From assembly GCF_041886205.1 (NCBI RefSeq), contig NZ_CP169029.1: a DNA stretch of 64,000 bases, one strand, 5' to 3'. Position numbers: made by a program. Source of the DNA: Escherichia coli. Its GTDB lineage: Bacteria > Pseudomonadota > Gammaproteobacteria > Enterobacterales > Enterobacteriaceae. Below are positions 52,044-55,000 of this stretch, in pieces; the stretch's first letter is position 1; every line of letters starts with the position of its first letter.

Positions 52044-55000
52044 TAAATAAACGGGAGGCGAAGGTGCCTCCCGTTTTTAGATTGTTTTCAATTGATTGAT
52101 AATGAAAGGATTCGCTTGCAAAAGCAGGAGCAATTTTCGAGGTGCTCCGGTAGGTTGACGGCGTTTGGTTTCCCAGCTTTTGACCAGGTCATAACTTACC
52201 CCAACGGCGACAGCAAAATCTTGCTGACGTAAACCCGTTGCTTCACGGATCGCTTTTACATCGATCTCGCTAAAAGTATGGACGTGCTCTGGTTCAGGCG
52301 TTTCTTCACCCTTTTCGATGCGTACCATTTCTTCTGCGCTGGCAAGAAGATCAGCAAATAATTCATCTTTCATCTGTTTTCAATGTCTCCGTTGGCATTT
52401 CGACCATGGTGGAATTTGTGGAGCTTCAACATTAAAGCAGCTTCTCGGACAATAGTTTCAATGCCTTTCTTTGTTCTTCTGTTAAATCATCCTGTTCATT
52501 TTTAGGATAAATCAACGCCAGATAAATTCGGCCATTGCGTGTTACGTTGTAATAAATTATCCGAATGCCACCCCGTTTCCCCATTCCAGAACGGTTCCAG
52601 CGAATTTTTCTAAAACTGCCTGTGCCTGCGATAATGTCACCGGCAGTGGGATCTTGAATGAGTAGTTCCTGAAAAATCCGGAACTCATCATCAGGTAGCA
52701 ATAACTGGCGGCGTTTGCTAAATCCTTGTAGTTCAATAAAGGTGAACATAATGCATCCTGCGGTCTATTGATAATTATAAGTGTACCGTGTACATATTGG
52801 TAGCTAATTAGATATAAAAAAACCCCTTATCCGTTTGGATAAGGGGTCAATGAGATATCAGCTGATTACAGCTTCGGACCAGCCGCTACCAGCGCGGCAC
52901 CCGCAGGGGTGTCGGTGTATTTATCGAAGTTGTCGATAAACAGTTTCGCCAGGGTTTCGGCTTTTTCCTGCCACTGTTCCGGGGAAGCGTAGGTGTTACG
53001 CGGATCGAGAATCTTCGTGTCTACGCCCGGCAGTTCGGTTGGGATCGCCAGGTTAAACATCGGCAGAGTGAAAGTTTCTGCGTTATCCAGCGAACCGTTG
53101 AGGATGGCGTCGATAATAGCGCGGGTATCTTTAATCGAGATACGTTTTCCAGTGCCGTTCCAGCCGGTGTTAACCAGATACGCCTGCGCACCTGCCGCTT
53201 GCATACGTTTTACCAGCACTTCTGCGTACTGAGTTGGGTGCAGCGACAGGAACGCCGCGCCGAAGCAAGCGGAGAAGGTTGGCGTCGGTTCGGTGATGCC
53301 ACGCTCAGTACCGGCCAGTTTGGCGGTGAAGCCAGAGAGGAAGTGATACTGGGTTTGATCGGCAGTCAGGCGAGAAACCGGCGGCAACACGCCGAAAGCA
53401 TCAGCAGTCAGGAAGATAACCTTAGTCGCGTGGCCCGCTTTGGAAACCGGCTTAACGATGTTATCGATGTGATAGATCGGATAAGAAACGCGGGTGTTCT
53501 CGGTTTTTGAACCATCATCAAAGTCGATAGTGCCATCTTCACGCACGGTGACGTTTTCCAGCAGCGCATCGCGACGGATAGCGTTGTAGATTTCAGGTTC
53601 CGCTTCTTTCGACAGCTTGATGGTTTTCGCGTAGCAGCCGCCTTCGAAGTTAAACACACCGTCATCGTCCCAGCCGTGTTCGTCATCGCCAATCAGGCGA
53701 CGTTTCGGGTCGGTGGAAAGGGTGGTTTTACCAGTGCCGGAAAGGCCGAAGAACACCGCAACATCGCCTTTCTCGCCAACGTTGGCGGAGCAGTGCATAG
53801 AAGCGATACCTTTCAGCGGCAGCAGGTAGTTCATCATCGAGAACATCCCTTTCTTCATTTCGCCGCCGTACCAGGTGCCGCCAATCAGCTGCATGCGCTC
53901 GGTCAGGTTAAACGCCACGAAGTTTTCGGAGTTCAGCCCCTGTTCTTTCCACTGCGGGTTAGTGCACTTCGCGCCGTTCATAACGATAAAGTCTGGTTTG
54001 AAACCTGCCAGCTCTTCATCGCTCGGGCGAATAAACATGTTTTTGACAAAATGCGCCTGCCAGGCCACTTCGGTGATGAAACGGACGGAAAGACGAGTAT
54101 CCGGGTTCGCACCACAGAAAGCGTCGACAACGAACAGACGTTTGCCGGAAAGCTGCCTGGTCACCAGGCCTTTCAGATGCTGCCAGGTTTCTGGAGAGAG
54201 AGGTTTGTTGTCGTTCTTACCTTTGCCTTTGTCTGCCCACCAGAAAGTATCGCGAGTGGTATCGTCACGGACGATATACTTATCTTTTGGTGAACGACCG
54301 GTGAAGATCCCGGTATCGACGGCAACGGCACCCAGATTAGTTAACACCCCGCGCTCATAACCTGTCAGGCTCGGATCGAGCTCTTCCTGATACAGCAGGT
54401 CGTAGCTTGGGTTGTAAACGATATCATGTACGTCACTGATACCATAAGCCTCGAGTTCTTGCGGGGTCAAACCATTGTTAACGCGCATTTCACTGCTCCT
54501 TAGCCAATATGTATTGCCTGAATAGTAAAGTCTTTTTGGGGGTGTTAACCGCGACAAGGCTCATAGATTTACGTATCTGGAGAAATTCATATTTGACAAA
54601 AAACTCCGTGATTCCTGTCACGAAACGGTTGCTATTATCGCAGAAATAGCATTTTAGGTGTGGAAAATGTTCTCAAAAGGTTAAATCTTGGTTTATATGG
54701 CGGGAATATTGTGAGTGGAATCGCATTCCTGAATGAAATTGATGCAAATTCAACCGGTAAAGTATCGATTCACCACGCTAACTTTTTTTGATTATTTTCT
54801 GAAAAAAGCAAAATACTACTGCCCGGATGCGATAATTAACCCACCTTTTGATTCTGGATAACCAACATGGATAACGTTGAACTTTCACCCGCAACACGCT
54901 GGGGGATGATTGCTACCGGATTACTTCAGGGTCTGGTTTGCTACCTGCTGATCGCCTGGCTTTCCGGAAAAAATCACAGTTGGATTGTTTATGGCGTGCC

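Follow-up and report, generated by a model that had tools for sequence, protein, structure and literature searches.

What are the two small genes that occupy the convergent gap between envZ and pckA in this E. coli chromosome, and did they arrive there by insertion? The ORF list and the sequence of the 64-kb stretch of DNA that was analysed (the window) show that both lie on the minus strand, toxin then antitoxin. We suggest that they very probably constitute a chromosomal type II toxin–antitoxin (TA) operon of the HigB-2/HigA-2 family, with a PF06296 'RelE' toxin and an antitoxin of the NadS/HigA-2 type. The locus is laid out as follows.

50694..52046, plus strand: envZ, the left flank of the TA pair
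52049..52076, both strands: bidirectional intrinsic terminator hairpin with an 11-bp perfect stem and a 6-nt loop
52077..52373, minus strand: antitoxin gene, 98 aa, HigA-2/NadS type
52374..52431, minus strand: toxin–antitoxin spacer of 58 nt, with GGAG 5' of the antitoxin ATG
52432..52749, minus strand: toxin gene, 105 aa, homologue of the HigB-2 / PF06296 RelE-family ribosome-dependent mRNases
52814..52848, minus strand: dedicated pckA terminator, a hairpin (52848..52821) with a 12-bp stem followed by T7 (terminator scan)
stop at 52866, minus strand: pckA, the right flank of the TA pair

Both open reading frames are genes rather than chance ORFs, because over 20 further genera carry intact homologous pairs, pN stays at 0.04-0.2 while synonymous sites are saturated, and the N-termini are conserved. 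Adjacent, co-oriented and served by a single promoter and terminator, they have the organisation of a type II TA operon, and the toxin-first order is kept in all homologous loci. The length of the spacer is not kept, ranging from -1 to 100 nt by CDS coordinates. An Rfam search of 51800-53000 gave sub-threshold chance matches only.

The arms of the hairpin beside envZ (52049-52059 and 52066-52076) are 100% complementary in an inverted-repeat scan and have a T-run beside them on either strand; on the plus strand the hairpin ends envZ, on the minus strand the TA operon. The antitoxin stop codon (52079..52077) adjoins its stem and extends over the final two T of the T-run, so the earlier note was right to place the stop inside the T-tract of the envZ terminator. 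The same note had described the pair as lying between two core-gene terminators, which holds for only one of them. The envZ hairpin is common to strains with an empty site and is unchanged in K-12, where, as in other K-12-type empty sites, it alone serves both envZ and pckA. The terminator on the pckA side is kept in occupied loci of Escherichia, Citrobacter and Kluyvera and is missing from the K-12 empty allele; since K-12-type empty sites do not have it, it counts as a feature of the occupied allele rather than of the core genome.

The toxin (MFTFIELQ...GKRGGIRIIYY...LALIYPKNEQDDLT; the quoted motifs were confirmed in the sequence) matches a single Pfam family, PF06296 (RelE), with an i-Evalue of 1.1e-5. 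At E <= 10 the scan gave nothing else, which rules out the Gp49-like family PF05973 and leaves classical HigB (PF05015 / PF09907) without a Pfam match; no NCBIfam model matches the toxin. A phmmer search of the PDB aligned residues 3-100 without gaps to V. cholerae HigB-2 (49% identity, E 5e-24). The AF2 model (pLDDT 88.5, pTM 0.82) has the element order E-H-H-E-E-E-H, that is, a RelE-type (BECR) fold with a C-terminal helix alpha3. The top 11 Foldseek matches to this model are all VcHigB2 (TM 0.76-0.87, E down to 2e-12; 0.82-0.87 for 8a0x, 5ja8 and 5mje), PfiT and E. coli RelE come well behind them, and S. flexneri HigBA reaches only E 0.12 and TM 0.44. Residues R50, R63, Y81 and K83 do not vary among 23 aligned sequences, VcHigB2 included, and correspond to R51, R64, Y82 and K84 of VcHigB2, where alanine substitution lowers activity 170- to 3000-fold (PMC5416850); the IIYY strand is also present. 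On sequence and model alike, the toxin is a member of the HigB-2 family (Pfam PF06296) and is predicted to cleave mRNA. The generic PGAP name, 'RelE/ParE family toxin', and the presence of ParE2 structures among the distant Foldseek matches might instead suggest a ParE-like gyrase poison. ParE, however, scores TM 0.41 and E about 5e-3, against TM >0.8 for HigB2, and does no better than RelE, while HigB-2, 49% identical to the toxin, is a demonstrated ribosome-dependent mRNase whose four catalytic residues are all kept. On the catalytic residues and the fold ranking we reject a gyrase poison as extremely improbable.

The antitoxin matches the NCBIfam model NadS (NF041265) over residues 5-96 with 75.1 bits (cutoff 60) and Pfam HTH_31/HTH_3 over residues 39-76. 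HigA-2 is found in the PDB with E 5e-5 from the single sequence and E 2e-8 with a profile (residues 3-95). In the AF2 model an N-terminal helix (2-20) and a low-confidence linker precede a five-helix XRE HTH domain (39-97), and the top Foldseek matches are HigA2 structures, although they are weak. We therefore regard it as a NadS/HigA-2-type protein with an N-terminal putative toxin-binding segment and, by homology and modelling, a C-terminal XRE HTH. PGAP names it nadS (WP_000650976.1); literature searches did not find the published origin of this name, and we found no relation between this gene and the 'nadS' named for K-12 in PMC12350097. Identity with E. coli K-12 YiaG is rejected, as PRK10072 gives 65.5 bits, short of its cutoff of 110; the two are related. 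No paralogue of the antitoxin gene was found in E. coli at the DNA level. The matches to HigB-2, PF06296, NadS and the HTH models thus bear out the earlier description, in which a toxin of the RelE/ParE superfamily is encoded ahead of an antitoxin with an XRE-type HTH. Of the HMM matches it had proposed as a check, the RelE-family and XRE-type HTH ones were obtained and the Gp49-like one was not, and its HigB/HigA-like label stands for the HigB-2/HigA-2 family but not for the classical HigB of Rts1 and K-12.

Upstream of the toxin gene the following elements can be placed.

52756..52759, minus strand: Shine-Dalgarno AGGA, 6 nt 5' of the toxin ATG
52774..52779, minus strand: -10 hexamer TATAAT (consensus), aligning with the -10 of homologous loci
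52782..52794, no strand assigned: likely operator, a TGTAC-N3-GTACA palindrome separated by 2 nt from the -10, on its upstream side
52797-52802, minus strand: -35 position TACCAA, poor

Because its -35 is weak, the operon promoter was missed by a consensus scan. An alignment of 25 upstream regions keeps CAGG(G/A)A. The palindrome TGTAC-N3-GTACA has a single match in the window, against 0.02 expected, and its GTAC-N3-GTAC core is almost confined to the 100 nt or less upstream of the toxin ATG in at least 25 homologous loci, that of plasmid pYR4 included. Most homologues have two such sites and the window operon one; the pckA terminator sits where homologues elsewhere have the second, distal operator. 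We infer that the palindrome is a likely operator, a testable prediction, through which the operon may regulate itself.

The closest structural parallel is the V. cholerae HigBA2 system (PDB 5JA8, 5JAA, 8A0X). The two operons are both toxin-first, the toxins share the fold, the catalytic R/R/Y/K residues and the IIYY sliding strand, and the antitoxins follow the same plan, with a toxin-binding segment at the N-terminus and an XRE HTH at the C-terminus. In V. cholerae, HigA2 protects TGTACGC-N5-GCGTACA between -35 and -10 (PMC11006873), and the TGTAC/GTACA half-sites of this sequence lie there much as the E. coli palindrome does. The antitoxins, however, are only about 26-27% identical, the base-contacting R68/E71/N72 of VcHigA2 are replaced by Y/V/K, and the palindrome is 13 bp (N3) in E. 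coli against 19 bp (GC-N5-GC) in V. cholerae. As both the contacting residues and the spacing differ, V. cholerae is no direct guide to operator recognition in E. coli. The setting differs too: VcHigBA2 lies in a superintegron cassette and the E. coli pair between two core genes. The HigBA of Yersinia ruckeri pYR4, an experimentally functional TA system and plasmid stabiliser (PMC11429247), is related to the E. coli pair at 56% (toxin) and 47% (antitoxin) identity, and the name NadS is used for its antitoxin as well. Its promoter likewise carries xGTAC-N3-GTACx palindromes and a TATAAT -10. It is nevertheless plasmid-borne, with two operators around a good -35 (TTGATA), whereas the E. coli copy is chromosomal, with one operator, a poor -35 and the pckA terminator in the place of the distal operator. 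The bicistronic 'relE-yiaG' modules with a PF_RelE (PF06296) toxin, described bioinformatically (PMC11980606), also place such a toxin upstream of a YiaG/HigA2-like HTH antitoxin, but the E. coli toxin has no extended disordered N-terminus of the kind typical of the subfamily stressed there. Classical HigBA (plasmid Rts1; E. coli K-12 HigB/YgjN-HigA) has in common with the present pair the toxin-first order, a RelE-superfamily mRNase and an HTH antitoxin. Its toxins belong to other Pfam families (PF05015/PF09907) and have no helix alpha3, and its antitoxin architecture and mode of neutralisation differ from those of HigB-2/HigA-2 (PMC5416850).

A working scheme for the HigB-2/HigA-2 operon rests on homology to the V. 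cholerae and Y. ruckeri pYR4 systems. Transcription would start on the minus strand from the promoter that directly follows the pckA terminator and run to the hairpin held in common with envZ. The 105-aa toxin would enter the ribosomal A site and cut translating mRNA by means of R50, R63, Y81 and K83, unless neutralised by the N-terminal segment of the antitoxin (about residues 2-33), which is expected to fold onto it. The C-terminal XRE-HTH, as a dimer on TGTAC-N3-GTACA beside the -10, would repress the operon. Were the antitoxin degraded, or its synthesis stopped, the free toxin could arrest translation. It is thus by analogy that the window pair is credited with a toxic effect and its neutralisation, with binding to DNA and with any role in physiology. 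Literature searches found no experiments on this E. coli locus, and the E. coli copy has apparently never been studied experimentally. The pair is an ordinary, uncharacterised member of a well-studied family and is already annotated in public genomes; the practical value of the assignment is modest, and it gives a precise family (HigB-2/HigA-2, PF06296 with NadS) to a module for which PGAP has no more than generic labels in over 1300 complete E. coli genomes.

The earlier note had also held the pair to be accessory and strain-variable rather than universal core, and this is what the genomes show: it occupies the envZ-pckA site in 1324 of 5426 complete E. coli genomes (24%), including the reference strains E2348/69, ATCC 25922 (Seattle 1946), ABU 83972 and Nissle 1917. 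Its view that the pair had been inserted finds no support here. The same arrangement of pckA terminator, TA pair and envZ is found in E. albertii, Citrobacter and Kluyvera, and the empty allele has an unrelated 46-nt segment in place of the pair, so that the alleles differ by replacement and not by clean insertion. The K-12 segment aligned to the occupied allele scores 16 against a shuffled mean of 17.6, no similarity beyond chance. No insertion or deletion scars and no notable flanking direct or inverted repeats are visible, and, with neither scars nor similarity in the 46 nt, gain cannot be told from loss. The 'partial' alleles of BS-04 and HS-02 were rejected as deletion intermediates, being homopolymer-smeared products of low-quality assemblies. 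Plasmid or phage copies of the exact module were not found, only homologues below 60% identity, with two exceptions: one record is a chromosome under a wrong label, and a 568-kb Klebsiella aerogenes record has a copy with 82% identity. We suggest from these comparisons that the pair, which carries a dedicated pckA terminator within its own allele, is an old polymorphic resident that E. coli has in common with Citrobacter and Kluyvera, and not a recent island.

Such a distribution could suit an abortive-infection module, in which phage shut-off of host transcription or degradation of the antitoxin frees HigB-2 and blocks phage translation. RelE/ParE-superfamily toxins have been discussed as defence toxins (PMC11980606), the module is accessory, polymorphic and low in GC (43% vs 52%), and its homologues are phage cargo (PHROGs 5869/2104), with relatives riding in P2-like prophages. 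On the other hand, the toxin has no match in PADLOC-DB v2, where the antitoxin matches only the generic HTH_VI and RmrA models; the flanks in E. coli are core genes, with no defence genes adjoining; and no experimental report was found for this family member. A defence role seems to us quite unlikely, and a part in persistence would likewise be conjecture. A passenger without present benefit, selfish or neutral, kept by addiction or by its linkage to essential neighbours and undergoing slow decay in E. coli, is easier to entertain. The 76% of complete genomes in which the pair is missing show no obvious consequence, and toxin frameshifts or deletions are seen in several genera. In the Nissle 1917 lineage a nonsense mutation in the toxin gene and a 7-nt deletion that takes half the operator have become fixed (107 and 103 genomes); about 8% of carriers have a null toxin, which is thus dispensable, and this lineage provides a natural toxin-null, operator-deleted mutant. 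Yet about 92% of carriers are free of the Nissle-type nonsense allele, the remaining E. coli alleles inspected are intact, and the arrangement has been kept in three genera. Moreover, in comparisons with other Enterobacterales genera pS is saturated, with pN at 0.11-0.2 for the toxin and 0.04-0.14 for the antitoxin. This pattern points to purifying selection on both genes, strong where both are intact and sustained across divergence that saturates synonymous sites. We consider a pure passenger possible but doubtful.

The two genes do not evolve at the same rate. Although synonymous sites are saturated, the antitoxin keeps 85-95% identity from family to family, and in 92 of 94 Enterobacterales pairs it is the slower of the two genes (median pN 0.078 vs 0.127 for the toxin); measured against the window copy the gap in rate is about 3-fold, again despite saturated pS. 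The antitoxin has also outlived the toxin, remaining intact where the toxin is inactivated, as seen in Kluyvera sichuanensis, Photorhabdus bodei, Enterobacteriaceae B14, Photobacterium and the Nissle lineage; compared with K. ascorbata, the orphan of K. sichuanensis retains a pN/pS of about 0.1. Together with the prophage relatives, these observations could mean that the antitoxin (NadS) is the selected component, as a transcription factor that regulates other promoters or as an 'anti-addiction' immunity protein that neutralises HigB-2-type toxins of P2-like phages or plasmids, and that the toxin is secondary and often lost. Loss of the toxin first is, however, the sole viable order of decay for any TA system, and orphan antitoxins are expected anyway. 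The operator occurs once in the window and elsewhere almost only at the module's own promoters, so there is no sign of a regulon. Nissle has lost half of the operator as well, which is more in keeping with decay than with domestication; in K. sichuanensis the orphan carries Y60H in its recognition helix; and both genes are strongly constrained wherever both are intact. We regard this account of the pair as unlikely. The broader proposal, that across the Enterobacterales NadS-type antitoxins are the component under the strongest selection, with a toxin-independent function in immunity to phage or plasmid HigB-2 or as regulators, is in our view less probable still; if true, it would explain both the near-frozen antitoxin and its survival after repeated loss of the toxin, Nissle 1917 included. 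The slower antitoxin poses an evolutionary question that belongs within the Enterobacterales clade, since over longer range the pattern reverses and the toxin is the better conserved partner, at 56% against 47% identity for pYR4 and 49% against about 26-27% for V. cholerae.

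The toxin–antitoxin (TA) pair between envZ and pckA is chromosomal and, unlike the well-characterised family to which it belongs, uncharacterised; public genomes already annotate it (RefSeq/PGAP: WP_000493758.1, 'type II toxin-antitoxin system RelE/ParE family toxin', and WP_000650976.1, 'nadS, NadS family protein'); our literature search found no paper on the E. coli envZ-pckA TA locus. The ORF list and the sequence put both minus-strand ORFs exactly where the earlier note had located them in the gap, and the motifs it quoted are found in the window. The features of the locus are as follows.

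50694-52046, plus strand: envZ, one flank of the pair
52049-52059 and 52066-52076, both strands: bidirectional hairpin, perfect 11-bp stem followed by T-runs on both strands
52373..52077, minus strand: antitoxin ORF, 98 aa
52749..52432, minus strand: toxin ORF, 105 aa
52759-52756, minus strand: toxin Shine-Dalgarno, AGGA
52779-52774, minus strand: consensus -10, TATAAT, upstream of the Shine-Dalgarno
52782-52794: 13-bp palindrome, TGTACCGTGTACA, upstream of the -10
52848-52821, minus strand: hairpin with T7, strong pckA terminator (terminator scan)
52866, minus strand: pckA stop codon, the other flank

The antitoxin stop codon (52079-52077) directly adjoins the 11-bp hairpin and, given the T-runs on both sides of the stem, envZ and the TA operon end at one common hairpin. 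The module has a GC content of 43%, against 52% across the window.

The initial reading of a RelE/ParE-superfamily toxin with an XRE-type helix-turn-helix (HTH) antitoxin is borne out by Pfam (PF06296; HTH_31/HTH_3) and by matches to VcHigB2 and VcHigA-2, the Vibrio cholerae HigB-2 and HigA-2 proteins. The Gp49 family, also suggested for the toxin, was not returned by the Pfam scan, in which PF06296 'RelE' is the sole match; the classical HigB families are likewise absent from that result. Among all PDB chains searched with phmmer, VcHigB2 matches at E 5e-24, ungapped across residues 3-100, and UniRef labels the toxin 'Toxin HigB-2'. The 11 top PDB matches to the AF2 model of the toxin (23 homologues, pLDDT 88.5) are all VcHigB2 chains (TM 0.76-0.87), with PfiT and E. 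coli RelE ranking well behind. In VcHigB2, changing R51, R64, Y82 or K84 to Ala lowers activity 170- to 3000-fold, and strand 65-IIYY-68 shifts by sliding upon antitoxin binding (Hadži et al., PMC5416850). The counterparts are all present in the E. coli toxin (R50, R63, Y81, K83 and 64-IIYY-67), the first four being invariant in 23/23 aligned sequences. Codon 25 (52675-52677), in helix alpha2, is Ile (ATT) in the window allele and Ala (GCT) in five other inspected E. coli alleles, E. albertii and most genera, two nucleotides differing within this single codon.

The antitoxin matches the NCBIfam NadS model (75.1 bits, cutoff 60) and scores under the cutoff of the YiaG model PRK10072. A profile of 20 antitoxin homologues matches VcHigA-2 over almost its full length (E 2e-8). 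In the AF2 prediction, residues 2-20 form an N-terminal helix and residues 39-97 a five-helix domain, joined by a linker modelled at low confidence; the modular plan is that of VcHigA2, and HigA2 structures are the first-ranked, albeit weak, structural matches of the model. A PGAP-annotated 'nadS' (RS26030) is expressed in K-12 BW25113 according to PIRT-seq (PMC12350097); that strain lacks the envZ-pckA module, and no DNA-level paralogue of the window antitoxin was found across E. coli genomes.

In an alignment of the 100 nt 5' of the toxin from 25 loci, TGTAC-N3-GTACA is conserved directly upstream of the -10. Most homologues have a second palindrome ~30 bp farther upstream and a TTGAxx -35 between the two copies; the envZ-pckA loci have the pckA terminator in place of the distal palindrome and a poor -35 (TACCAA). 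The 64-kb window contains a single copy of the 13-bp palindrome (0.02 expected), and across 37 fetched loci the GTAC-N3-GTAC core is nearly confined to <=100 nt of the toxin start. The higBA promoter of the Yersinia ruckeri plasmid pYR4 has the same layout, with two copies of TCGTAC-N3-GTACGA around TTGATA, then TATAAT. The V. cholerae HigA2 footprint is TGTACGC-N5-GCGTACA, located between -35 and -10 (PMC11006873); its outer half-site resembles that of the E. coli palindrome, but its half-sites stand 6 bp farther apart, and three of the four base-contacting residues of VcHigA2 (R68, E71, N72) are Y, V and K in the E. coli antitoxin. Because of these differences, we infer the candidate operator from its phylogenetic footprint and not by transfer of the V. 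cholerae result.

The best-supported account of the E. coli pair is the standard HigB-2/HigA-2 mechanism. The toxin would be a ribosome-dependent mRNase acting at the A-site, the N-terminal segment of the antitoxin would fold onto it, and the antitoxin HTH dimer would repress the TA operon at the palindrome; loss of antitoxin would set the toxin free. Every step has been shown for V. cholerae HigBA2 (PMC5416850, PMC11006873), and toxicity, rescue and plasmid stabilisation for pYR4 HigBA, the closest tested relative (PMC11429247); for the E. coli copy we infer all of these functional steps by homology. Candidate physiological roles are addiction or stabilisation, abortive infection, a stress response, or none. 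The module merits an annotation line and would not surprise a specialist.

Comparison of the gap across strains agrees with the proposal that the pair is accessory: of 5426 complete E. coli genomes, 1324 (24.4%) align end to end with a 1201-nt query that covers the gap, and nearly all others align as two flanks ~457 nt apart, a single empty-allele type. All E. coli copies are chromosomal and at this site; carriers include E2348/69, Seattle 1946, ABU 83972, Nissle 1917, an ST648 strain and ECOR29, and the alleles diverge by up to ~2.3%. The K-12-type empty allele has an unrelated 46-nt spacer, and allele comparison found no recognisable remnant of either allele in the other. The idea that the pair sits between two core-gene terminators holds for the envZ hairpin, which the empty allele keeps, and fails for the pckA terminator, which it lacks. 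BS-04 (L031, 2560-3050; locus coordinates are local) and HS-02 (L036, 413-946) were rejected as deletion intermediates; in these assemblies, from one study, the TA region is a homopolymer-smeared, low-complexity artefact annotated 'hypothetical protein'. EC7518 (L003, 3230-4438), a strain lacking the TA pair, carries an ISVsa5 (IS4-like) transposase in the gap, which can therefore accommodate insertions of other kinds.

Scanning a single genome for each species gave 26 loci. The pckA-envZ placement recurs in E. albertii, Citrobacter gillenii, C. portucalensis, Kluyvera ascorbata and, with the toxin cut to 17 codons, K. sichuanensis. Since the pckA terminator and the promoter with its single putative operator are homologous across the occupied Escherichia, Citrobacter and Kluyvera loci, sequence comparison favours an old residence at this site, and the K-12-type allele is possibly derived. 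Between E. coli and Citrobacter, however, TA pS is 0.70-0.78 against 0.48-0.57 for the flanks, and with Kluyvera included (L007, L008, L010) envZ, pckA and ompR (0.45-0.64) remain below the TA values; allelic replacement, or weak codon bias given the high AT content of the module, may account for this excess. E. albertii shows the reverse (TA pS 0.07, pckA 0.27), and in strain NBRC 107761 (L004, 4708-7622) the pair adjoins fragments of pckA and of the envZ 3' end; together these findings suggest import from E. coli by recombination. For these reasons the direction, gain or loss, is not proven. Beyond the fragments, ahead of the real envZ, NBRC 107761 has four ORFs in a 2.7-kb island; one of them may be SMI1/KNR4-like.

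A second recurrent chromosomal site, with two putative operators, lies directly upstream of dusA in Leclercia, Silvania, Pseudescherichia and Enterobacter sp. (L005, L006, L009, L012; ~3900-5900). P2-like prophages carry the pair in Edwardsiella ictaluri (L025, 3223-5811), between gpV (baseplate) and gpS (virion morphogenesis), and in Yersinia alsatica (L019, 5415-7113), next to the gene for the tail tube and an ORF that probably encodes the sheath, and would provide a vehicle for spread between families; toxin and antitoxin alike match PHROGs of unknown function. The 895 plasmid records with homologues are all <60% identical save a mislabelled E. coli chromosome and a 568-kb Klebsiella aerogenes record, whose copy is 82% identical.

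Against other Enterobacterales genera, pN is 0.11-0.2 for the toxin and 0.04-0.14 for the antitoxin, with pS saturated for both; the antitoxin is the slower in 92/94 Enterobacterales pairs (median pN 0.078 vs 0.127) and 85-95% identical to the window copy, the toxin 69-81%. At long range the order reverses to the usual pattern of a more divergent antitoxin (pYR4: toxin 56%, antitoxin 47%; V. cholerae: 49% and about 26%). Frameshifted or deleted toxins beside an intact antitoxin occur in K. sichuanensis, Photorhabdus bodei, Enterobacteriaceae B14 and Photobacterium. Such recurrent inactivation, seen in Nissle 1917 as well, leaves room for an antitoxin function independent of the toxin; by itself it is no proof of one, because the toxin is expected to decay first in any TA system. 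In K. sichuanensis (L029, 4001-4377) an internal deletion leaves the first 17 toxin codons, and the orphan antitoxin, still intact, shares 91% identity with the window's and has Y60H in the recognition helix and a pN/pS of ~0.1 against K. ascorbata. In Nissle 1917 (L030, 756-1073) the toxin carries E22* (window 52684-52686; PGAP 'internal stop'), and its promoter (L030 ~1110) has lost 7 nt, GTACACG (window 52787-52793), and with them one half-site of the putative operator; its antitoxin has the same protein sequence as that of the window. Exact Nissle 61-mers find the stop in 107 and the deletion in 103 complete genomes, and this natural toxin null makes the E. coli module a convenient system.
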